Part shown: one piece after another, positions 10,148 through 39,272 of the stretch | Position numbering within the stretch: the first letter of the stretch is position 1 | How the letters are laid out: every line of letters begins with the position of its first letter | Assembly (NCBI GenBank): GCA_965204535.1 | Contig: OZ241996.1 | Coordinates: forward strand, 352,001-416,000 | Length of the DNA: 64,000 nucleotides | Direction of reading: 5' to 3' | From: a bacterium | GTDB taxonomy: Bacteria > UBA8248 | Translations under genes and position numbers: made by a program | The notes under the pieces: model-generated | Database searches by the model: none | What the model was told of the DNA's origin: nothing | What the model saw: only the letters and a program-made list of their open reading frames with translations

Positions 10148-11663
10148 GGGGCTGTTGAAAAACCCCTGGTTTTGTGATCGTATGGATGTATCCCCCCTCG
10201 CCCGAGATGGGAGATTCCCCGATGTTGGACCGCAAGAGGCGCGGGCAGATGGAATTGTTCGTGGCCGGTTCGCTGGAGCAGTTGATTCCCGAAGATTACA
10301 TATTGTTCCGGGTGAACCGCGTACTGGATTTGAGCTGGCTGCGCGAGGAGGTGGCGGAGTGCTATTGCGCGGACAACGGTCGACCGGGGATCGACCCGGA
10401 AGTGGTGGTGCGGTTGATGCTGGCGGGTCTTCTGCTGGGCCACGTTCACGACCGGCATCTGCTTCGCGAGGCGCAGGTGAACCTGGCGATCCGGTGGTTC
10501 ATCGGGTACAGGCTGGACGAGGAGTTGCCGGATCATTCGAGCCTGACGCGTATCCGTCAGCGGTGGGGGGAGGCGCGATTCAAGGAGATATTTCGGCGCA
10601 CGGTTCAGTCTTGCGTGGAGGCGAAGGTGGCGAAGGGAGAAGTGGTTCACATGGACGCGTCTTTGATACGCGCGGACGTGAGCTGGGAGAGTCTGGCGGA
10701 GCGCCACGCGGAGAAGGTGGTGCGGGAGAACGACTCGGAGGATGAGACGGGGAAGAAGGGCGGTGGCGGGGGTTCGGGTCCGGTGAGCCGAACGGACCCC
10801 GACGCGCGCCTGGCGCGCAAGAGCGCTCGGGCGGGGTTCGAGCCGAGCTACAAGCACCACGCGGTGGTGGACGACGAGCGGGGCGTTGTCCTCGACGTAG
10901 AGGTGACGGCGGGGACGTTGAACGAGCGGGAGATGATGGAGCCGCAGTTGGATGCGGTTTGCGAGCTCACGGGTCGCGCGCCCGCGGTGGTGACGGCGGA
11001 TTCGGGCTATGCGTACTCGAAGGTGTACGGCGCATTGGAGCGGCGTGGCGTCGCCGCGCTGATACCGGCGAAGAAGGAGCCTTCCCAGAGCCGTGTTCCG
11101 CTGCAGTTGTTCCGCTACGACGAGCGGCGCAAGGTGGTGAAGTGTCCGGGCGGCAAGACGCTGCGTCCCCGGAAGGAGACGGAGCGGGGGCGCTACTATG
11201 GTTCGAGGACGCGCGATTGCGCGGGCTGCGCGCTGAGGTCGGATTGTCTGCCCAAGTCGCACACGAGCAGGACGGTGCTGATTCCGCACGAGTATCCGGC
11301 GCTGTTGCGCGCGCGCCGTCGCCACGCGCGCCGGGGGGAGGAGGAGGGCCGGCTGTGGCGCCGCCACATGTCGCGTTCGGAGGGCTACCACGGCGAAGCG
11401 AAGAGTCGGCACGGACTGGGGCGGGCGGTGCGCCGGGGCCTTGCGAACATGAGGATCCAGGCCTACCTGACGGCGACTGCGGTGAACCTCAAGCGGCTCG
11501 CCGCCGCTGTTGCGGCGGATATATTCGCTCTGTGGAGGGCCTGCGCCGCCCGGAGACGCCGTCTGCGCGTTCCTCGCGGCCTCACGCGCCGATTGGGCTT
11601 CCTATCCCAAGCCGCGTGAGCCGCCATACCTCCCGCTTCAAAACGGGGTTTTTCAACAGCCCC
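10148..11663 (+). mobile_element. IS1182-family insertion sequence (1516 bp)
   Basis: Perfect 19-bp terminal IRs GGGGCTGTTGAAAAACCCC (10148-10166 and 11645-11663); TTGA target duplication at 10144-10147 and 11664-11667. Confidence 0.93.
10222..11619 (+). CDS. IS1182-family DDE transposase
   Basis: GRPGIDPE, NLAIRWFIG, LPDHSSLTRIR, HMDASLIRA, SRTDPDA, TADSGY, EAKSRHGL, AVNLKRL. Confidence 0.92.
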   Translation: MLDRKRRGQMELFVAGSLEQLIPEDYILFRVNRVLDLSWLREEVAECYCADNGRPGIDPEVVVRLMLAGLLLGHVHDRHLLREAQVNLAIRWFIGYRLDEELPDHSSLTRIRQRWGEARFKEIFRRTVQSCVEAKVAKGEVVHMDASLIRADVSWESLAERHAEKVVRENDSEDETGKKGGGGGSGPVSRTDPDARLARKSARAGFEPSYKHHAVVDDERGVVLDVEVTAGTLNEREMMEPQLDAVCELTGRAPAVVTADSGYAYSKVYGALERRGVAALIPAKKEPSQSRVPLQLFRYDERRKVVKCPGGKTLRPRKETERGRYYGSRTRDCAGCALRSDCLPKSHTSRTVLIPHEYPALLRARRRHARRGEEEGRLWRRHMSRSEGYHGEAKSRHGLGRAVRRGLANMRIQAYLTATAVNLKRLAAAVAADIFALWRACAARRRRLRVPRGLTRRLGFLSQAA

Positions 11664-15400: not shown

Positions 15401-15690
15401 GCGAGAGGCTCGCGCCGTGGCGAGAGCAAACACTCATTCATCAATCGCGTTTGGCCTTCGATATGCGGCTTCGCCGCTATTCAGGATGAGGCGGTGCGGT
15501 TTTGATCGTCATTCCGGCGCAAGAATGGATGAAGATTCCATTGTAGCGGACAAGCTCCTGCGCCTGTCCGAGGTCCCACGCTTGTTCCTGCGAAGCGCGA
15601 CCACGGGGATGGACATATCCGATACGAGTGGCCACGATCGAACTTCCCCCTTCGGGAAGTTCGACGCCCCTACTACTGGTGAATGCGGTT

Positions 15691-15870
15691 TTGTTCGTCA
15701 TTCCGGCGAAAGCCGGAATCCAGGGACTTTGCTTTTGGATTTGTCTTTTCGCTTTATCGTTTTTCTTGGTCGACCTGTGATTCGGTATTCCCGTCTGCTC
15801 TGGATTCCGGCTTTCGCCGGAATGACGGCGGTGGACAATTCCGAGCGAAGAGGACTTTTTCAACAACCCC
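15691..15870. mobile_element. Partial MITE (reverse copy of the 1479-1787 type) with inverted REP-like hairpins
   Basis: Hairpins at 15696-15722 and 15801-15827; end CTTTTTCAACAACCCC at 15855-15870. Confidence 0.7.
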
Positions 15871-15982: not shown

Positions 15983-17070
15983 GAGACGAGTTTCCCGTCA
16001 CCCGGAGCTGGACCTATCTGGACCTCGCCAACAAGGCGCCCCTTCCCCGGTGCGCCCAGGACGCCATCCCCGATTTCCTGCGGGAGATGAATGAGGGCGG
16101 CGTCCGGGAGGCCTTCTCCAAGGGCCGCGTGGAGGAGATTCGCGCCTCGCTGGCATCGCTCCTGGGCGTCGCGCCGGGGGCGCTCGCGTTCATCAAGAAT
16201 ACGTCGGAGGGATTGAACATCGCCGCGCAGGCGCTCGATCTCAAGGCGGGGGACAACGTCATCCAGGCGGAAATGGACCACCCGAACCAGGTGTACGCAT
16301 GGAAGCGCCTGGAGGAAAACGGCGTCGAGTTGCGGTGGGTGCGAAACGGGGACGGCTACCCTCCGGTAGAGGCGTTCATCGAAGCGATGGACGAGCAAAC
16401 GCGCGTCGTGGCGGTCTCCTATGTGACTTTCGGGACGGGCTGCCGGGTGGACCTGCCCGCCCTGGGCGCGGCCTGCCGCGAGCGCGGGGTCGTCTTGATG
16501 ACGGACGCGATACAGGGGGTCGGGATACTCTCGGCGTCGCTGCCTGTCCTCGGGGCGGACATCGTGGTCTGCGGCGGGCACAAGGGGTTGCTCGGCCTGC
16601 CGGGCACGGGTTTTCTCTATTGCCGCGAAGACCTGATCCCCGGGATGAAGCCCCCTTTCTATGCCCGCGCCAGCATGGTGCCTGAAGCGCGTCCCCGGAT
16701 GGAGGTCGGGCTGGCCCCGGACGCCGGCCGCTTCGAGATCGGGAACCAGAATTACCTGGGCTTGTGGGTGCTCGGCCGCTCGGTCGAGTTCCTTGGCAAG
16801 GTCGGTCTCGAGCATATCGAAGACCGCGTGCGGGGGTTGACGACGTATCTGATGGAGTTGCTGGAGAGGCGGGGCGAGAAGATTCTGACGCCTCGCCCCT
16901 GGGAGGAGCGCGCCGCCATCGTGAGCATCGAGTCACCCGACCCGCCCAAAGCGGCGGCGCAACTTCGCGAGAAGAGAATCATCGCAAGCGCGCGAAACAA
17001 CGCCCTTCGCTTCGCGCCGCATTTCTACAATACCGAAGAAGAACTCGAGCGGGTGGTCGGTCTGCTTTAG
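15937..17070 (+). CDS. Aminotransferase class V PLP-dependent enzyme
   Basis: LRDEFP, YLDLA, KNTSEGLN, DAIQGVG, GGHKGLLG (PLP lysine), RFAPHFYNTEEE. Confidence 0.88.
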   Translation: MNEQQGAVAPDFTALRDEFPVTRSWTYLDLANKAPLPRCAQDAIPDFLREMNEGGVREAFSKGRVEEIRASLASLLGVAPGALAFIKNTSEGLNIAAQALDLKAGDNVIQAEMDHPNQVYAWKRLEENGVELRWVRNGDGYPPVEAFIEAMDEQTRVVAVSYVTFGTGCRVDLPALGAACRERGVVLMTDAIQGVGILSASLPVLGADIVVCGGHKGLLGLPGTGFLYCREDLIPGMKPPFYARASMVPEARPRMEVGLAPDAGRFEIGNQNYLGLWVLGRSVEFLGKVGLEHIEDRVRGLTTYLMELLERRGEKILTPRPWEERAAIVSIESPDPPKAAAQLREKRIIASARNNALRFAPHFYNTEEELERVVGLL

Positions 17071-17186
17071 GGGAATTCCCAAACAATTCGATAAAATCAG
17101 ATAAATTCACGGGGTTTTTCGATAAATTGCCGTAAATTTCCGAGGGGAAATGCGGGGAAATGCGGGGCCGGGATGCGAGCAAATGC
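17071..17186. repeat. AT-rich GATAAA block plus tandem AAATGCGGG units, shared with 38852-39272 and 24037-24054
   Basis: 40/50 ungapped identity of 17071-17120 to 39008-39057 (hand count). Confidence 0.7.
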
Positions 17187-18884
17187 CTACGCTCGCCCGT
17201 AGCGGCGGCGGCGCTTGTTGATGTCCTCGAGCTTGCGCGAGAGCTTCTCCAGCGTGCGGTTGTCGCTCAGGTTCCCTTCGATGTGAATGTGGTAGACGTG
17301 TGTATCGCCCCCGCCTCCGCCGGTTTCTTCCCGTATCGCGTCGCGGATGATGGGCCGCACGCCGCGCTGAAAGAAGTCGATGGATTGCGGGTGGTTCACG
17401 TTCATGATGTGCTCGGGCCCCGCCTCGCCCACGAGCCTGAGGGCCGAGCGCTTGACGAAACGCCCCGCCGCGTCGCCTTCATCGATGAGTACGGGCAACG
17501 CCCCCAAATATGATGAGTAAAGGCTTTGGCCGAAATACCGCTTCACGCCCTCCTGGGGCGAGATGCCCGCCTTCCCGGCCGCCCTTTGGATGAGCTGAAA
17601 CGTGAGGCCCGCTTTTTCCAGCAAAGGGGGGTCCACGCTCATCCGGCCTTCGTAGACCGCCTTGGGAAGCGAGAGGAGCCGTGCTTCATCCGCCACGCCG
17701 GTTTTCTGGAATTTATCGAGCGCGATGTACAGCCCGGCCGCCTGCGCGAGATTCGCGATTCCCCGAGTGAAGGGGGTGGACCTGTCCCGGAAGCCCTTGA
17801 AGCCCAGGAAGGAGAGCACCTGCTTGATGGCGCCGCCCTTGTTGAACAGGACGTCGGTGAGCAGAAAAGCGCCCGCCGCCGGCCCGAAGGCGGCGAGGCC
17901 GGTGGCGCCCGCGAGCGCGGGGACGGCGCCGGCGACGTTGATGGCCAGGTTCGCCCCTGTTTTCAGGGTTTTGGGGCCGCTCAGGAAGTCCAGCGCCGAA
18001 AAAGCGACCCGCAGGGCCGCCGACGCTTTCGTCGCCGCAATCCGCGCGGCCAGCGCGCCGCTCGCCTTTTCGCCCGCGGCGGTGGCCACCGCCGTGCCGC
18101 CGATGCGGTTCGCCGCCTCGAGTTCGGAGACGGACTGGAAAAGGCGCATGAGCCCCGCCTCGCCGCCGATTTTCGCCAGCGGTACGACGAGTTCCGGCCC
18201 CGCCTCGCCGATCACGCCCAGGGTGGGCTTTTTCACCAGACCTCCCTTGGAAAACCCGAATACGCCCAGCAGTCCCTTCCCCAGATCGCCCAGCAGGTTC
18301 AGCCCCAAATCCTGGAGCGCGCCCACCGCGGGCTTGATGAACTGCGTGCTCGCCATCTCGGCGGCGGCGTTTCGAACCATGTTGATGGCGTGGTTCTTGA
18401 GGTCGCTGAACAGGTCCTTGGCGCTGTCGATTTTGCCGGTGAGGACGCCCGAGAAAAACCGGGTGAGCGTCTGCTCGCTCGCCGCGGCGAAGTCGTTCAC
18501 CGCCCTTCCGGCGACCCGGAAAGAGGCGGGCAGGGCGGCGGCTTTCGCCTTGACCTCATCGAGACCCCTCGTGAGCGGGCCGGAGGCGAGCCGGGAGCCG
18601 GCTCGTTCCGCATTCCTCCACAGGGAGTTCATCCCCTCGGCGGCATCAGTGGACGAAGCGCCGACTCTCTGGAGGCGTTCTGAGGACCTCACGAAGGCGC
18701 GGCTCGATTTTTCGAGCGCGCTCCGGGACCCATGCGTTTCGGCCTTGAGTTTTTCCGTAGCGATCCTCGCCCGGCCCGCCGCCTTGGTGAAGCGGTCGAG
18801 CGCTTTCAGGCTGTTCCCGGAGTTCAGGTCGATTTTCTTTATCACCGATATCTTGTGGACGTGCTCCGGCATGGAATCCCTCAT
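17187..18884 (-). CDS. Phage tail tape-measure-like protein
   Basis: Ala/Gly-rich helical sequence; FSKGGLVKKPTLGVIGEAGPELVVPL and a second LVGEAGPE motif typical of tape-measure C-termini. Confidence 0.7.
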   Translation of the reverse strand: MRDSMPEHVHKISVIKKIDLNSGNSLKALDRFTKAAGRARIATEKLKAETHGSRSALEKSSRAFVRSSERLQRVGASSTDAAEGMNSLWRNAERAGSRLASGPLTRGLDEVKAKAAALPASFRVAGRAVNDFAAASEQTLTRFFSGVLTGKIDSAKDLFSDLKNHAINMVRNAAAEMASTQFIKPAVGALQDLGLNLLGDLGKGLLGVFGFSKGGLVKKPTLGVIGEAGPELVVPLAKIGGEAGLMRLFQSVSELEAANRIGGTAVATAAGEKASGALAARIAATKASAALRVAFSALDFLSGPKTLKTGANLAINVAGAVPALAGATGLAAFGPAAGAFLLTDVLFNKGGAIKQVLSFLGFKGFRDRSTPFTRGIANLAQAAGLYIALDKFQKTGVADEARLLSLPKAVYEGRMSVDPPLLEKAGLTFQLIQRAAGKAGISPQEGVKRYFGQSLYSSYLGALPVLIDEGDAAGRFVKRSALRLVGEAGPEHIMNVNHPQSIDFFQRGVRPIIRDAIREETGGGGGDTHVYHIHIEGNLSDNRTLEKLSRKLEDINKRRRRYGRA

Positions 18885-18923
18885 TCATGAACGAGATGCT
18901 GGATGGGATGCGCAACGGGCGCG

Positions 18924-19046
18924 CTAATCCGCCCAGGGGTTGATGAAATGCCACAGGTGGTTCGTGATGAGGCGCGGCTCGATCGCCGCGATGACGCAAA
19001 AGACGGCGGCGGCCGAGAAAAACGCCGCGAGAAGATAAGGAATCAT
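18924..19046 (-). CDS. 40-aa hydrophobic peptide MIPYLLAAFFSAAAVFCVIAAIEPRLITNHLWHFINPWAD
   Basis: ATG overlaps the stop of the upstream gene (ATGA); one TM-like segment; below the ORF-track cutoff. Confidence 0.55.
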   Translation of the reverse strand: MIPYLLAAFFSAAAVFCVIAAIEPRLITNHLWHFINPWAD

Positions 19047-19426
19047 GGTTGACGCTCCTTGTTCAGGCGCTCGTCGAGTCTGGCGAGCGCGGTTTCGACC
19101 TCACGCAGGCGGCGAAGTATTTGCGCGAAGGTTTGCGCGTCCCCGCGCGTTTTTTTCACGGAAATCGCTTTCAGTTCACGGAATTCGAGATCGGCGATTG
19201 TCTTCGCCTCCCGCAACCGGGTTTCCACTTCCTGGAAGCGGACGCGCGCGCCCGCGTTTTTCTCCAAAAGCCAGGGGTGGCCCCGCTCGGCCATGTGGGC
19301 CGCCAGACGCCTTTCCACGTTCACGATATGGTTGTAGAGCGGCGTGTAGGCGGCCACCCCGAGGCCGGCGATGCTCAGGATAGAGAGGAAAATCTGGAGC
19401 CCTTTTCCGTTTCCTTCAGACGCCAT
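19043..19426 (-). CDS. Phage-like membrane-anchored coiled-coil protein
   Basis: N-terminal TM segment (LQIFLSILSIAGLGVAAY), heptad-like C-terminus; coupled to neighbours. Confidence 0.55.
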   Translation of the reverse strand: MASEGNGKGLQIFLSILSIAGLGVAAYTPLYNHIVNVERRLAAHMAERGHPWLLEKNAGARVRFQEVETRLREAKTIADLEFRELKAISVKKTRGDAQTFAQILRRLREVETALARLDERLNKERQP

Positions 19427-20121
19427 CAGCGCACCTTGTCGAAAGAAGAGGCGGCTTCTTCGAGTCTGGAACCCAGGGCCGCCACGCTGGCGGTGACGGC
19501 GGCGTCCCGGGTGTCGCGCACGCTCTCATCATAAATTTTAAGGAGAGAGGCGAGCTTGCCGAGCAGGGCCGTCCTCCGGCTCGTCCACTCATCCACCACG
19601 CTTTGGCCCGTCGCGTAGCGCGCGGGATAGGCGTCTTTTCTGTTTTTGATGAGCGCGAATTCCGGCTTTGCGAGTTTGTTCTCGCCTGAATCCTGCGCCC
19701 AGGCGTCGATGAGCTTGGCTTTTTCCTCGTATTCGGCCAGCTTGCCGCCCAGAGCGCTCACCGGCACGCCCACGATGCGCGCCTTGGCGGCGTTCAGCAA
19801 CAGGTTGAGTTTCTCCTTCGCCTCGTCTCGATGGATATCAGCGATGCCACCGGGCGCGTGCGCGGCATGAGCGGCGAGAATGGCTACGCGCTGCGCGCGG
19901 GTGCTTGAATCGGCCACGTTGATGACCCACGTGTCCTGGCCGGGACCGTGGATTTCGGGACGGGCGGATTCCGTCTCGCCGGGCCCGGGCCGCCAGTCGG
20001 CGTCAGGCGTCATGGTCGTTTTCAGCCGGTGCGCGCTGCCCAGGTAGAGGTGCGCGAGGCCGGCGGTTTCGAGTTCATCTCGAAAATGCGACCCGACGGC
20101 TTTGGTCACTTCGATTTCCAT
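19426..20121 (-). CDS. Hypothetical phage protein (possible tail-fibre assembly factor)
   Basis: Follows the fibre-like gene; RBS present; helical C-half with AEYEEKAK. Confidence 0.5.
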   Translation of the reverse strand: MEIEVTKAVGSHFRDELETAGLAHLYLGSAHRLKTTMTPDADWRPGPGETESARPEIHGPGQDTWVINVADSSTRAQRVAILAAHAAHAPGGIADIHRDEAKEKLNLLLNAAKARIVGVPVSALGGKLAEYEEKAKLIDAWAQDSGENKLAKPEFALIKNRKDAYPARYATGQSVVDEWTSRRTALLGKLASLLKIYDESVRDTRDAAVTASVAALGSRLEEAASSFDKVR

Positions 20122-20130
20122 ATTGGCCTC

Positions 20131-21072
20131 CTAGATCAAGACGACGCTTTGGAAGAGATAGTCGCCGATGTTCAGGATGGTCGAGCCCGCCACGCGAAAG
20201 ACGAACGTGGAGTGAACCTCGGCGAGGGCGCCCCTGTATATTCGTGTGCTCGCAATCGCGAAGTTGTCTTTTTCATTGTTCGACAAGCGAATGATTTCGA
20301 CTTCCGGATAGGCCTGCCCCGTTCCGCCAAACAGTTTGAGGTTCATGTCCAGACCCGCCAGACCCGCGATGCTCGTCGAATTCACCCAGCCTTGTCCGCC
20401 GGCTTCCTGGCGGATGACGTCATGTCCCGGCCACATCAGGATTTCGTGCGTGGCGACGGAGGTCCAGTCGGTGGACAGGGTGGTGGCGAGCGTTCCTTTG
20501 GACTGCGCGGCGTATACCGCCTTGTTCCAGAAACTTCTGACATACACGTCGTTCGAGAGGACGAATTGCGATGAGCCGTCCGTTCTCGCGACCCCGGCGA
20601 GGGTGCGGCTCTTGTCGTGCGTTTTGTGCGCCAGCCCCGTGGCGGCGTCGAACGCCCAGCTTCCCGCGCGATCGAATTCGAGCTTGAGCCCGCCTCCGTC
20701 ATCGTAGACGAAGACCGCATGGGAGCTGTCCGCCTCGAGGTCCGCGTTCGTAATCGTGATGCCCTCCCAGGGCAAATCCTCGTAATAGACGTCTCCCGAC
20801 GCTTCGTCGATGAAGGGCACATGGCGGCCCGCCACGGGATTGGCGACGGCGGGGTAATAAGCCGAGGCCAGCGCCGGCCTGAACGCCAGGGTGGTGGCGT
20901 TCACGTAATCGAGCCTGCCCGCGCATTCGATGGGTTGCCTGTCGGCCCTGATTTTTCCGTCCGGGAACAGGGCGGCGAGGGCCAGGCGGTCGATGACGCG
21001 GGCTTTCGTGGGGTGGTGGCCGCCGATGGCTTCCTCGGTGTAGCGGGCGGACAGATCGGCTCCGATGGGCAT
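20131..21072 (-). CDS. Putative tail fibre / receptor-binding protein
   Basis: Phage-type N-terminus (YTEEAIGGHHPTK), beta-rich body; AGGAG RBS; position after the hub-like gene. Confidence 0.5.
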   Translation of the reverse strand: MPIGADLSARYTEEAIGGHHPTKARVIDRLALAALFPDGKIRADRQPIECAGRLDYVNATTLAFRPALASAYYPAVANPVAGRHVPFIDEASGDVYYEDLPWEGITITNADLEADSSHAVFVYDDGGGLKLEFDRAGSWAFDAATGLAHKTHDKSRTLAGVARTDGSSQFVLSNDVYVRSFWNKAVYAAQSKGTLATTLSTDWTSVATHEILMWPGHDVIRQEAGGQGWVNSTSIAGLAGLDMNLKLFGGTGQAYPEVEIIRLSNNEKDNFAIASTRIYRGALAEVHSTFVFRVAGSTILNIGDYLFQSVVLI

Positions 21073-21083
21073 CGTTTTCTCCT

Positions 21084-22295
21084 TTATGCGTAAGTGGCGG
21101 CGTCGCGCTCGGCGCCCAGGAGCCGGCCGCCTTCGAGTGTTCTGCTCCCGTCCAAAAGAAAGGAGGACGTCAGGAAAAAGCCGGTATCCCGGATTTTGAG
21201 CTCCATGCCCTGCTCACCCAGGTCGTAATTCACCTCGATCACTTCTCCGATTTGATTCACGAGGGGTTCGAGCTTCTCGGAGCGCATCCAGGGCACGCTG
21301 AACGCCACGTAGTCGTCCGGTTCGATTTCGAGCGCTCTCAGGGAGCTGTCCTCGATGGTGAGCATGCGGGTGGGTTCGTGACAGCGCTCCACGATGCGCG
21401 ATTGAACCGTGGCGGCAACGCGCTCGCGCCGGACCCAGTCGAGCCTGAGCGGGCTTTGCGGAGGTCTCCTGACGCCATAGAGCCTTTGGGAGGAAATGTT
21501 CCGGGTGGCGCTCCCGTCGTCGTGTTTGATGTAGCGCGCGCCCGGATAATCCCTCGCATAGAGCACCGGAACCTGATTGACGACGGTGTCGCGCGCCATC
21601 TCCGCCTCGATGCTTGAGTGGCCGAAACGCGGCAGAACCTTTTGGGGTGAAATGGCGGAGGGTTCCTCTCCTGCGATGTGAATTTTCAGGCGGCCGAACG
21701 GGTCGATTTCGTATCGTCCGAGGAAATCGCCCAAAAGCGAGGTGAGGATGTCGGCGGGCGCATGGTCGTCCAGGATGATCCCACCCGCCCGGTAGCCGTA
21801 GGCCTTCGCGCCGACCGCCGCGCGCGAAAGGGCCTGCATGTCGAGGTCCTGCTCGCTGAATCCCCAGACGCTCGTCATGAGGTCATAAACGACCTCGGCG
21901 GGGTTTTCGATGTGTGCGCCGCTGTCGTTTTTCCTGCCCTTGCATACGGCGGTCACGCGCCCCTTCGGCGGGTCTGCGAAAGCGGCCGTGGCGATTGCGC
22001 CCCTGCCCTGGTAGTTCCGGGCGAGTTCCAGAGAGTATCTTCCCGGCTCGATGCGGCCACCGTCGTCGAAAAGCGCGACGGCTCCCGATATCTCATGCGC
22101 GGCCACGCAGTAGACGCCGCCCCCGGCGGGGTCGATTTTCGGAAGCTCGTAAACGCCCGCGTTCTCGCGCGAAGGAACCGTCAAATCCCCGTAGATGATG
22201 GGTAGGCTCTGGTCTTCGAATTCAGGGTCGGCGTACCTCGAAGCGCGCCCTATCGGGAATGCGTCCGAGAGCCGGTCCGTCGTCGGGTCACTCAT
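21084..22295 (-). CDS. Putative tail tip / hub protein
   Basis: SLPIIYGD, IENPAEVVYDL, SSQRLYGVR, LEIEPDDYV segments typical of siphoviral tail-tip proteins. Confidence 0.55.
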   Translation of the reverse strand: MSDPTTDRLSDAFPIGRASRYADPEFEDQSLPIIYGDLTVPSRENAGVYELPKIDPAGGGVYCVAAHEISGAVALFDDGGRIEPGRYSLELARNYQGRGAIATAAFADPPKGRVTAVCKGRKNDSGAHIENPAEVVYDLMTSVWGFSEQDLDMQALSRAAVGAKAYGYRAGGIILDDHAPADILTSLLGDFLGRYEIDPFGRLKIHIAGEEPSAISPQKVLPRFGHSSIEAEMARDTVVNQVPVLYARDYPGARYIKHDDGSATRNISSQRLYGVRRPPQSPLRLDWVRRERVAATVQSRIVERCHEPTRMLTIEDSSLRALEIEPDDYVAFSVPWMRSEKLEPLVNQIGEVIEVNYDLGEQGMELKIRDTGFFLTSSFLLDGSRTLEGGRLLGAERDAATYA

Positions 22296-22829
22296 CTAGT
22301 TGCCCTCGCATTCCATGGAAACCTGGTCGATGCGCTCGGTAATGCGGCGAATGGTGAAGCTCCCGATCGAGAGAACGTCGGATATGTTTTGTCCTGAAAA
22401 CCCGACGCGCACGTCGACCTTTCCGCCAATGAGCGGCTCCGTCGCAAGGATGCGGCTCATGCGCGGGTGGCCGTCCATGTCGGGAGCGTTGTTGACGGCT
22501 ATCGTAAGGCCGGGGAGTTCCTTTTCCCGGAATGCCTCGAGAATGGAGGGACCCTGAAACGCGCCGAGAGAGAATCGCCCGCCGTCCTCTATCCAATCAT
22601 GGACGCCGAGGAGCACTTCCGCTCCCTCTCCCAGCAGAAGGGAACCATCGAGAATTCGCGAGCCGTCGAGGAAATGGATTCTTCCGCCTTGCCCGATCAG
22701 GGAGTCGGGAACCTGCTTTCCGCAGAACACGCGCTTTCCACCGGCGGTGGAGAGATGATAGAGGATGAAGGCGGTTTTCCCCTCGTGCCCGGCGATGTCC
22801 GCGACCGCCTGGTCCGTGACGCGCCTCAT
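22296..22829 (-). CDS. Hypothetical phage tail-module protein
   Basis: Coupled ORF; FLDGSRILDGSLLLG motif; KVDVRVGF..GSFTIRRI. Confidence 0.5.
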   Translation of the reverse strand: MRRVTDQAVADIAGHEGKTAFILYHLSTAGGKRVFCGKQVPDSLIGQGGRIHFLDGSRILDGSLLLGEGAEVLLGVHDWIEDGGRFSLGAFQGPSILEAFREKELPGLTIAVNNAPDMDGHPRMSRILATEPLIGGKVDVRVGFSGQNISDVLSIGSFTIRRITERIDQVSMECEGN

Positions 22830-23905
22830 GCGAGTCTTTCCCTGAGATCGAGTTCGAAGGAGAAGTCGTCCGACCCCGTCTGTCGCGGCAAAAAATCGCC
22901 CGTGAGGTGGGCGAGAATGACCGAGGCGGGGTCGTCGACGTCCAGGTGAACGAAAAACGGCTTGGCCCGCCCGGCGTCGACGTCCTTCACCGCGCGGTAC
23001 ATGGCGAGAAACGCTCCTCGCTGCTCATCCGATATACGCTCGTAGGGAAGGGTGATCCTGCGGCCGCGATTCAAGAGCACCGGACGCTCCGCCATGTTTT
23101 CCGTGCGGCTTGTTTCCTCGAAGGCTTCTTCTCCCACCACGTTTCCGAACCAGAAATGGTCGGCGGGCTCGAAAAAGTCCCCCAGGTAGATTTCCGAGAC
23201 TTCCAGACAGGCATCCTGATCGGCGGCTACGCCTTCGGCCAGAAGACGCCAGTGGCGGTATGAGCGCGGCGTGGTGGCGAAATAGTGGATGAGCGTGTCG
23301 CTGCGCCAGATGGGCCTTTCATCGAGTGCGGGCGCGCGCCAGTCCGCGGACCCGTTCGCCTGAATCCGGAGACTTGCGCCGGGTGGGAAATTGTGGAGGT
23401 GGGCGATGAATACGTCGGGAGATTTTTCCTCACCGAAATCAAGGGCGAGCGACCATGGGTCTTCGGGCGGCGAGGCGCTTCTCATCTTCGTGGCGGGGTC
23501 GAGATCGTAGATTCTTCTTGGAGAAAAAAAGCGATTCGCCGTCGCCTGCCAATGATCGCCCAAGGCGAAAGCGGGTGAACTCGCGCCACTCACGAAGCGG
23601 ACCTTCACGCCCGAGTCCAGGGCGGTATCCGTCAGCGCGGTGGGGATGTTCGAGGCTTCCCAGCCGCCCGCGGGTGTCGATGTCTTGCGCCACCTGAAAC
23701 GGGCGCTTCCCACGTCGCCCGGCGCTTCGATTTCGGCGAAGTAGACTTCCTGGTCCTCTCCGGCGTAGGCGCCCGAGAAGACCATCGAGCCGCCCGCGTT
23801 CGCGACGCGGGGCACGCCCGCGCCGACGAATCCCTTCTCCACGGAAGTGGCGGTGATGAGCGTCTCGTCGTCGATGAGATTTCGATACATGAAGCGGTGT
23901 CCCAT
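22826..23905 (-). CDS. Putative distal-tail-like protein with a carbohydrate-binding-like insert
   Basis: AGGAG RBS before MGHRFMYRN; SYRHWRL..LEVSEIYLG discoidin-like segment; first gene of the operon. Confidence 0.5.
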   Translation of the reverse strand: MGHRFMYRNLIDDETLITATSVEKGFVGAGVPRVANAGGSMVFSGAYAGEDQEVYFAEIEAPGDVGSARFRWRKTSTPAGGWEASNIPTALTDTALDSGVKVRFVSGASSPAFALGDHWQATANRFFSPRRIYDLDPATKMRSASPPEDPWSLALDFGEEKSPDVFIAHLHNFPPGASLRIQANGSADWRAPALDERPIWRSDTLIHYFATTPRSYRHWRLLAEGVAADQDACLEVSEIYLGDFFEPADHFWFGNVVGEEAFEETSRTENMAERPVLLNRGRRITLPYERISDEQRGAFLAMYRAVKDVDAGRAKPFFVHLDVDDPASVILAHLTGDFLPRQTGSDDFSFELDLRERLA

Positions 23906-24036
23906 TCCACTCTCCTGGGCGGGGTGTTCCATGTCGGGAAATTCCCTGGCTCCCGCCTGGGTTTCGGCATCACTCCGGCGCAGGAGGGCGCCGAGGTCAC
24001 CGAATATATGGGAATCGGGGAGGAGCGTTCGCCTCG

Positions 24037-24054
24037 CAAATGCGGGCAAATGCG
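24037..24054 (-). promoter_or_regulatory. Tandem motif CGCATTTGCCCGCATTTG upstream of the tail operon
   Basis: 18/18 identical to 38866-38883. Confidence 0.55.
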
Positions 24055-38851: not shown

Positions 38852-39272
38852 CCCCGCAAATCCCCCGCATTTGCCCGCATTTGGCGTTACCGGGCTTGGA
38901 CCCGTGCGGGGCAGAATCGGGCGCGCGAACGGGAGGAGTTCCGATGGACCTGGGCAGGAAGGATTTGGAAAAAGCAAAGCGAACGGACCCGGCGTTTTCC
39001 GCGCGATGGGAATTCCTGAAAAATACGATAAATATCGATAAATTGACGGGGTTTTCCTGTAAATTTCTGACTATGCAAATGACTGTAATCAAAAGGGTTA
39101 TCATATAAATCTTAGCGCCGCGCACTCAGATCCGGCGGTGAAAAAAGTTTTTCAGGCGCCACCGCATTTGCCCGCAACTGCCCGCATCTGCGCGCCGAAC
39201 GAGCCGGTCGGCTTCCCGAGCATACCGGAGTCCGCTCAATCCGCGCAGGCGGGGAATGCGGGACAAATACGC
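38852..39272. repeat. Cluster of CCCGCATTTG-type tandem units plus the GATAAA block
   Basis: Units at 38852-38883 and 39162-39190, inverted degenerate units at 39249-39272; block at 39008-39067. Confidence 0.7.
38944..39108 (+). CDS. Small 54-aa ORF with strong RBS (possible phage gene remnant)
   Basis: GGGAGGAG-N5-ATG; MDLGRKDLEKAKRTDPAFSARWEFLKNT... Confidence 0.35.
   Translation: MDLGRKDLEKAKRTDPAFSARWEFLKNTINIDKLTGFSCKFLTMQMTVIKRVII

Follow-up and report, generated by a model that had tools for sequence, protein, structure and literature searches.

A tail-tip operon in a UBA8248 bacterium appears to be part of a dispersed, host-maintained phage particle kit that is probably gene transfer agent-like

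Introduction

The features and definition of gene transfer agent (GTA) viriforms have been set out for RcGTA, BaGTA, BhGTA, Dd1 and VTA (PMC9662315, in its accessible text), and the RcGTA genome is multilocus (PMC5026251, in the part available). Few GTA lineages are known, and according to the available portion of PMC11841831 current screens find RcGTA-like ones only. Phage P22 offers a parallel for packaging of host DNA: pac-like motifs in the host chromosome attract the small terminase, bias packaging and could be selected, and in Salmonella nine such sites serve the free phage (PMC11260489, in the part available). Here we describe an eight-gene phage tail module at positions 17187-23905 of a 64-kb stretch of DNA (the window; positions 352,001 to 416,000 of contig OZ241996.1, assembly GCA_965204535.1) from a bacterium of the GTDB lineage UBA8248. 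Together with head, packaging and lysis genes on a second contig, the module makes up a set of genes (the kit) that is almost certainly real, ancient, selected and domesticated, judging from sequence comparisons across relatives. The kit, known here from its genes alone, probably specifies a GTA-like particle domesticated from a transposable (Mu-like) phage.

The host genome, G000, comprises 4.56 Mb in two contigs, C1 and C2, and is 95.7% complete; the window is C1:352001-416000. Comparisons drew on a phylum-level search of 51 genomes: 22 congeners, 41 family members in all, and 9 others.

Results

The window holds an intact tail module

Eight minus-strand open reading frames (ORFs) make up the module. 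Coordinates are those of the window, and the ratio of nonsynonymous to synonymous substitution (dN/dS) is given for each.

22826..23905, minus: ORF A, 359 aa, likely a distal tail protein (Dit) with an inserted CBM32/F5-8-type sugar-binding domain; dN/dS 0.23
22296..22829, minus: ORF B, 177 aa, likely the N-terminal part of the baseplate hub; dN/dS 0.17
21084..22295, minus: ORF C, 403 aa, siphophage baseplate hub or tip protein by its model; dN/dS 0.24
20131..21072, minus: ORF D, 313 aa, likely a tail fibre or receptor-binding protein; dN/dS 0.21
19426..20121, minus: ORF E, 231 aa, likely a fibre assembly chaperone; dN/dS 0.27
19043..19426, minus: ORF F, 127 aa, N-terminal hydrophobic helix and coiled coil; dN/dS 0.16
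18924..19046, minus: ORF G, 40-aa membrane peptide; median dN/dS 0.20 (noisy)
17187..18872, minus: ORF H, 561 aa, tape measure protein; dN/dS 0.24 (a start at the in-frame ATG at 18884 would make it 4 aa longer)

Each ORF has one stop, adjacent ORFs overlap by 1-4 nt or are separated by 0-51 nt, and GC content at third codon positions is 0.73-0.84. The original prediction, made from the window sequence, had described eight co-oriented, abutting or overlapping ORFs free of frameshifts, and this description holds. It had also given the ORFs ribosome-binding sites; clear Shine-Dalgarno-like sequences are present at four of the eight, and the remaining ORFs are instead coupled by overlap or abutment. 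The GC content of the module (0.62-0.65, compared to 0.60-0.61 for the genome) is host-like, and no attachment site-like direct repeats flank the module, both as predicted. The 64-kb window contains no tRNA genes and no Rfam match.

On the evidence of its predicted structure, ORF C is a siphophage tail hub. The AlphaFold model, built with 108 homologues, has a predicted local distance difference test score (pLDDT) of 92, and Foldseek matched it to the T5 tail tip (pb3; E 1.7e-11), Chi (1.9e-10), JBD30 (9.5e-10) and the lambda tip (3.5e-8). At the sequence level, tblastn of ORF C against the phage collection gave no match, and at least 101 of the 108 homologues were without a PHROG match. Many relatives of ORF C carry about 170 aa extra ahead of the matching part, which implies that ORF B is likely the N-terminal part of the hub, fused to the rest in those relatives; ESM Atlas matches to ORF B (0.93-0.97) are mostly viral clusters, with PF09931 in one set at 13%. 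ORF A is likely a Dit bearing a sugar-binding insert. In its AlphaFold model (pLDDT 80.8) the two ends form a tube/Dit fold that aligns with the T5 pb9 Dit (VIA Z 7.2, a middling score; root-mean-square deviation [rmsd] 2.4, 96 aligned), and the insert aligns with CBM32 (Z 8.8, likewise middling; rmsd 3.8, 118 aligned). Matches in the viral library, tail proteins among them, reached E 6e-10, and a Foldseek search of the PDB with ORF A returned nothing at E<=0.001.

The other assignments draw on position and weaker matches. ORF D gave no direct family match in Pfam or PHROG searches; its N-terminal anchor is conserved, its body varies between genera, and its N-terminus matches a gene at the equivalent position in relatives, one of which matches tail-fibre PHROGs. 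This shared N-terminus and its place after the hub make ORF D a likely tail fibre. Similarly, ORF E is likely a fibre assembly chaperone from its place after the fibre and from a weak lead in the ESM Atlas (0.91-0.92 to XkdW/HI1402-type clusters). ORF F appears to be a membrane protein, with an uncertain lysis-accessory or assembly role; it weakly matches a PHROG of unknown function, and no alignment was obtained between it and the gp25-like gene found in other genera. ORF G was found in 19 congeners at 65-92% identity. Tape-measure PHROGs match ORF H down to E 2.4e-7, and its homologues in other genera lie between the tail chaperone and the Dit/hub genes. None of the eight ORFs had a Pfam match above the cut-off, and PHROG searches of all eight gave the tape measure plus weak matches only. 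Overall, the hub, the likely Dit and the tape measure are assigned from structure or family matches, ORFs B, D and E from position and weaker evidence, and the roles of the membrane proteins F and G are uncertain.

Head, packaging and lysis genes lie on the second contig

The prediction that the module stands without head, tube or integrase genes is correct for the window and fails for the genome. A search for separate terminase-portal-capsid or tube clusters, proposed at the time, located head, tube, terminase and lysis genes on C2 with queries taken from relatives; first genome searches with PF03237, PF04860 and PF05065 had missed this head module. The PF07471 profile found nothing in the genome, and PF11985 found the small terminase. 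A weak PF03237 match was rejected as a terminase (it lies in a gene that, by inspection, is mutase-like and metabolic), as were two SLT genes as endolysin, from their non-phage context. The C2 genes are all on one strand in a Mu-like order: 87-aa and 126-aa genes, a 53-aa membrane gene, DUF1508, lysozyme, holin, a gp26-like gene, small terminase, terminase ATPase, nuclease, portal, protease-capsid fusion, adaptor, neck, terminator, tube and tail chaperone (to 997970).

C2:955658-956301: candidate regulators of 87 aa and 126 aa (126-aa gene at C2:955921)
C2:958196-958609: lysozyme, PF00959
C2: holin, three transmembrane segments, PF11351
C2:960221-960796: small terminase, PF11985/phrog_426, Mu-gp27 type
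C2:976837-977895: terminase ATPase, GpA PF05876, phrog_675
C2:977892-978539: terminase nuclease, phrog_675
C2: portal, phrog_10963
C2: protease-capsid fusion, PF25209
C2: tail tube, PF18906

The small terminase (191 aa) covers positions 13-164 of 173 in PF11985 and 2-175 of 184 in phrog_426, and its N-terminus is predicted to bind DNA. Walker A/B and nuclease motifs of the large terminase are kept in 19-24 sequences and the E-D-T triad of the lysozyme in 15/15. Between the kit genes, on the other strand, lie host genes: a 17-kDa lipoprotein gene, amtB, a diadenylate cyclase gene and cofE. In the streamlined genus g5 the same host genes stand in the same order, and the kit is gone. In near-complete congeners the tail and head loci are 0.26 Mb to >1 Mb apart, a distance beyond any siphophage head.

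Three side observations concern this locus. A conserved coding-like stretch between the capsid and adaptor genes in the genus (L056:12246-12664) is probably a small head gene in place of two decoration-like genes of other genera. At its start the kit adjoins genes for a LysR regulator and glutamate synthase, and the terminase and amtB genes point away from each other (L058:7004-8838; L151:1-10290); this setting among nitrogen-assimilation genes makes a link to nitrogen status possible. The gene directly upstream of the terminase, which we take to be yajQ-like, is intact in G013 and seemingly degraded in G000 (L058:8579-8830; L068:217-702).

The kit is inherited and constrained as a unit

Hub, capsid, terminase ATPase, tube, tape measure and small terminase are each present in 20 of the 22 congeners and absent from the same two, G009 and G010, which are separate branches of the host tree. 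The portal was found in 21, the extra one being a 28-aa stub in G010, which retains stubs of portal, small terminase and DUF1508 in three places. The joint absence and these stubs imply that once the kit dies, all its loci go. At the family level, kit markers occur in 28-33 of 41 genomes. The original prediction had offered an F-type tailocin beside a GTA-like particle. A headless tailocin made from tail genes alone would explain the non-contractile tail set (tube, tape measure, hub, fibre) and the lysis cassette. By contrast, the 20 of 22 congeners that have the tail also have the capsid, the portal and both terminase genes, all as constrained as the tail genes. This excludes the tailocin half of that claim and leaves this reading with next to no likelihood; the GTA-like half is favoured.

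We computed dN/dS between pairs of genomes by the Nei-Gojobori method, using pairs with dS 0.05-1 and excluding genes <90% covered by a single alignment piece (85% in the lysis/small-terminase region). Across 18-21 genomes, the medians of the eight window genes lie at 0.16-0.27. Those of the head, packaging and tube genes lie at 0.13-0.43 (6-21 genomes), which is also the range of the 17 structural genes in all. Lysis, small terminase and regulator genes have medians of 0.12-0.45 (8-15/16 genomes), and five host neighbour genes 0.08-0.27. Capsid, portal and hub identities track those of dacA/cofE (rho 0.89-0.95, three to five genera), with the g2 and g9 congeners grouping together, and portal tracks amtB (rho 0.75, 8 genomes). 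Within the genus, kit and host patristic distances correlate (r 0.90-0.96) with some conflicting nodes. Among 10 congeners, tail-tip trees share 3-4/7 splits and head trees 5-6/7 with host trees, and two host trees share 5/7 with each other. The complementary modules on C2, the occurrence beyond a single strain, the dN/dS of 0.16-0.27 and the tail folds together uphold the original prediction of one module of a domesticated, genomically split particle.

The origin of the kit lies further back than that of the genus, and in relatives whose records point to groundwater and seawater the kit occupies one site. These facts bear on the idea that the kit is kept for another role, such as programmed lysis with DNA release, phage decoys or sponge-host contact. 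Conserved lysis genes, the sugar-binding fold of the Dit and the sponge metagenome label on 11 of the 20 sequencing runs listed as containing the tail stretch are what such a role would lead one to expect. However, the kit predates the genus, holds its single site in those groundwater and seawater relatives, and is constrained in every packaging and tail gene, beyond the needs of lysis alone. We consider this role quite unlikely.

The kit probably descends from Mu-like phages, and its tube gene is broken in this strain

Among cultured phages, the portal matched only Microcystis phage Mae-JY22 (PP438414.1), which carries a DDE transposase, an AAA ATPase, Gam, Mu gp27 and Mu F. Six kit proteins (portal, capsid, adaptor, neck, terminator, tube) match JY22 proteins in the same order at 27-39% identity (portal 39%, capsid 32%), and G039, of the same class, carries a JY22-like Mu-like prophage. 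In G000, tblastn found no match to early genes of JY22 or G039, none of 13 JY22 early, packaging and lysis genes matched at E<0.01, and the Gam and Mu F families were not found; a PF09299 profile search was uninformative on transposition genes, its control matching nowhere. Viral contigs held no portal relative and only 23-28% identical terminase relatives. The large terminase of the kit is of the lambda-gpA type, and JY22 and the G039 prophage use another type. Two metagenome contigs with Mu-like genes (L246 and L247) encode a gpA-type terminase as a single 563-570-aa chain at 38-44% identity. In all family loci inspected, the ATPase gene stop overlaps or precedes the nuclease start (one junction is masked), with a gap of 100-350 nt in one genus. 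The single chain in the metagenome contigs and the split in every inspected family locus imply that the split is derived and old.

The tube gene of G000 is interrupted by a 1783-bp insertion sequence (IS) at C2:995208-996990 (L056:15208-16990) with a 6-bp target duplication. This IS encodes DUF772 and DDE transposase, is presumably IS1182-like, and has 13 other copies in G000 at 99.8-100% identity. Contigs of runs X1, X2 and X4, possibly from the source sample, run from the tube flank into the IS, and a contig of X3, from another study, joins across the empty site. The tube is full length in all 20 kit-bearing congeners. Thus, G000 is probably a fresh loss-of-function case in which tails would not form.

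This insertion, the losses and frameshifts in some relatives, and the homologous Mu-like prophages in the class (G039) would suit a defective prophage in slow decay or one that still propagates itself. Against this stand dN/dS values like those of host genes at dS 0.3-0.6, a fixed site, co-divergence across genera, host genes interleaved on the opposite strand, the failure to find transposase, Gam or Mu F in G000, and the lack of a close relative in viral contigs. The prophage reading is largely refuted and we rate it as very improbable; with host-like dN/dS, presence in 20/22 congeners and a fixed site, the module is very unlikely to be the decaying prophage that the original prediction had argued against.

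A promoter-like repeat recurs across the chromosome

Upstream alignments revealed one motif common to the ORF A, lysis, gp26/small terminase, terminase ATPase and capsid operons, consisting of a tandem 10-bp repeat followed by a -10-like hexamer about 29 nt downstream. Window copies are as follows.

24003..24054, minus: promoter-like element before ORF A; repeat at 24038-24054; conserved in 19 aligned upstream regions
17070..17164, minus: dispersed intergenic cassette; tandem repeat at 17148-17164 plus phased AT-rich box with core 17099-17112
38866..39049: second window cassette; repeat on the plus strand, AT box on the minus strand

The repeat thus brackets the tail module (24038-24054 and 17148-17164). 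We infer that the element at 24003..24054 acts as a promoter; scanning the minus strand ahead of ORF A for sigma-70 sites gave none. The repeat has 75 copies in G000 and none in two 1.5-Mb Markov simulations. By a simple gene caller, 72 of the 75 are intergenic, many facing no gene, and a phased AT-rich box lies within 600 nt downstream of 40. Repeat loci are spaced 69-80 kb apart on average, more evenly than random (coefficient of variation 0.67-0.74; P 0.11 and 0.03 for the two G000 contigs, 0.017 for G007, 0.0004 for G002). Of the 20 congeners that carry the kit, 18 have 35-106 repeats each; the two without it have 1 and 3, and other genera 0-12. For the exact AT box, 14 congeners have 46-73 copies, three have 7-15 and five have 0-3. 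A stricter search that also required the hexamer gave five sites, four of them at kit operons; its pattern had been derived from those operons. No imprint on GC skew or gene strand was seen around 53 AT-box loci of G000 in a crude test that took orientation from one 14-mer (skew difference -0.003, null standard deviation [sd] 0.005; strand 0.02, sd 0.06).

The cassettes are candidate packaging-start sites; alternatively, they may be kit-controlled promoters of non-coding RNAs, or a selfish repeat. In its most specific form, the proposal is of an independent GTA with a large terminase split by the host into motor and nuclease proteins, about 60 evenly spaced promoter-coupled cassettes seeded by the host in its own chromosome, and one activator that would both build the particle and open these sites, the host genome being packaged whole in tiles; this form is put forward tentatively, as a possibility suggested by sequence patterns. 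The same signature of complete kit, lysis genes and purifying selection would be left by a DNA-filled domesticated particle that benefits its host by killing or inhibiting competitors, with host DNA as filler, and the fibre body does vary between genera. We take such a particle to be PBSX-like. Yet the kit genes that were examined include no sheath gene, the fibre and the Dit show strong conservation across the genus (dN/dS 0.21-0.23), unlike an arms-race weapon, and chromosome-wide kit-linked sites point to the DNA mattering. A killing role is therefore unlikely.

As a side observation, five kit-motif copies lie 180-360 nt upstream of a tandem integrase-like pair in multi-copy integrative elements with a relaxase-like gene (labels by inspection). 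These elements may exploit the kit activator or the packaging sites.

L250:1366-8779, L251, L252, L253 and L254, equal to C2:345866, C1:183449, C2:1499218, C2:2356744 and C2:2956503: motif copies at integrative elements

The tape-measure-last order arose within the genus

The position of the tape measure at the end of the module, singled out in the original prediction, is fixed in 19 of the 20 kit-bearing congeners, and the contig of the 20th stops within the fibre gene. In other genera the tape measure precedes A-B-C (G030, G034, G025, G024) or B-C (G035), and in G034, G035 and G029 the tail tip directly follows the tube and neck genes. This order implies that the window module moved from a once contiguous cluster and was reordered in the genus ancestor. 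Gene order across relatives thus indicates that tape-measure-last is a genus-specific rearrangement, not a property of the particle. An explanation of the motif on both sides of the module as a tandem-duplication scar that moved the tape measure was weakened by the 75 genome-wide copies.

Upstream of the module is an M23 peptidase gene (by Pfam), and the genus keeps this side; further upstream neighbours are presumably gamma-carbonic-anhydrase-like and Ppx-like genes, labelled by inspection. In the two kit-less congeners, the M23 gene abuts the gene that follows the module in most congeners. We take that gene to be cinA-like. An IS transposase gene (481 aa; window 10174-11619), 5.5 kb from the module, is 90% identical to one near the G011 module, and a REP-like (repetitive extragenic palindrome-like) repeat occupies 15495-15827, with a perfect 28-bp inverted repeat at 15696-15723/15800-15827.

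Tail loci of relatives show further variation. In several congeners, though not in G000, ORF G and the tape measure are separated by a tandem run of one to three genes for lipoprotein-like products of 182-217 aa, possibly entry-exclusion or immunity proteins. In other genera, a short membrane gene and a 5' tape-measure fragment alternate before the full tape measure in a cassette-array-like manner. The order-level relative G038 pairs the same A-B-C tail tip with another head, in which scaffold and capsid are separate and the portal and terminase differ, reflecting either module shuffling or a second domestication.

L028:10795-12582, L029:11052-12821, L023:10626-11279: tandem lipoprotein-like genes
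L032:13290-16926, L034:2048-3433, L038:14849-15507: tape-measure fragment arrays
L128:9292-13351, L048:17048-19945, L037: G038 loci

Discussion

We propose that a Mu-like transposable siphophage gave rise to a kit that the host now maintains, and that the eight genes specify the tail tip and tape measure of this kit. One activator, for which the 126-aa gene at C2:955921 is a candidate, would switch on all kit operons. The small terminase and the two-chain large terminase would start packaging of chromosomal DNA, probably at the repeat/AT-box cassettes; packaging by transposable phages already works on chromosomal DNA. Holin and lysozyme would then lyse the producer cell. The particle set free would be short-tailed and would bind kin cells through its fibre and the sugar-binding domain of its Dit, so that host DNA is delivered to relatives.

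Several observations weigh against a GTA. The tube gene is broken in G000 itself, two congeners have lost the kit and genus g5 lacks it (0/4), and frameshifts or stops occur in G015 (ORFs A and E, portal; lysis genes missing), G006, G007, G018, G004 and G029, some of which may be long-read errors. Taken together, the losses, frameshifts and tube break mean that, as far as these genomes tell, the kit is dispensable, and dN/dS <1 is evidence of selection on proteins, not of their use. The lysozyme was found in 18 of 22 congeners and in none of 28 other genomes, the tail-tip tree contradicts host trees at some supported nodes, and kit-bearing G015 and G019 have only 3-4 repeat copies. Finally, known GTA small terminases are described as being without a DNA-binding domain (PMC11841831, in the part available), unlike the near full-length Mu-gp27 match of the kit, which implies that packaging may be site-directed, not random; the dispersed sites likewise suggest a bias in packaging. 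Even so, a GTA-like particle of Mu-like origin remains our preferred reading, and we regard it as probable.

The kit is a complete, selected GTA candidate found across a family of uncultured bacteria. Its probable viral ancestor, a transposable phage, is not that of the known GTAs, and free relatives, the Mu-like phages, display the ancestral state. The 20 carriers and two independent losses, together with the fresh IS knockout in G000 and the predicted map of packaging starts, amount to a natural experiment on GTA maintenance. Literature searches (Nitrospinota, sponge-symbiont GTA, UBA8248), with most subscription papers and supplements outside their scope, found no GTA report for the lineage, in line with the original prediction that none may be described; they also found nothing on Mae-JY22 and nothing relevant on a split terminase, and the lineage names do not occur in PMC13626063.

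Compared to the GTA viriforms of PMC9662315, in its accessible text, the kit shares Caudoviricete homology and folds in a head-tail set, endogenisation at several loci and vertical inheritance with co-diversification; it also has its own holin and endolysin, and no replication genes were found. It differs from known GTAs in its independent Mu-like siphophage origin, a gpA-type large terminase split in two genes and chromosome-wide candidate start sites, and in being known from genes alone. Relative to RcGTA, the kit families point to a Mu-like capsid and a gpA terminase, and only the holin family name refers to GTAs, at the level of the family and not of RcGTA proteins. Unlike P22, with its few sites serving a free phage, most kit-bearing genomes of this genus have 35-106 intergenic copies. 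These follow the presence of a kit owned by the host and have their motif in common with kit promoters; their packaging role is putative. An F-type tailocin comprises tail and lysis genes without head or packaging genes, and the kit has constrained capsid, portal and terminases. With tips of the T5 pb3 and lambda gpJ type, ORF C shares the hub fold and ORF A the Dit fold; the kit hub differs in being short (403 aa), with its likely N-terminal part a separate gene, and the Dit in its CBM32-like insert. A Mu-like prophage is recognised by a transposase, a MuB-type ATPase, Gam and a contiguous genome, a combination that was not found here: searches of the 95.7% complete genome gave no transposase, MuB-type ATPase, Gam or Mu F. 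Like JY22, G039, L246 and L247, the kit has the order lysis, gp26-like, gp27, terminase, portal, protease-capsid, neck, tube, chaperone, tape measure; unlike the kit, JY22 and the G039 prophage retain transposition genes, Gam and Mu F, and L246 retains a transposition ATPase and Gam.

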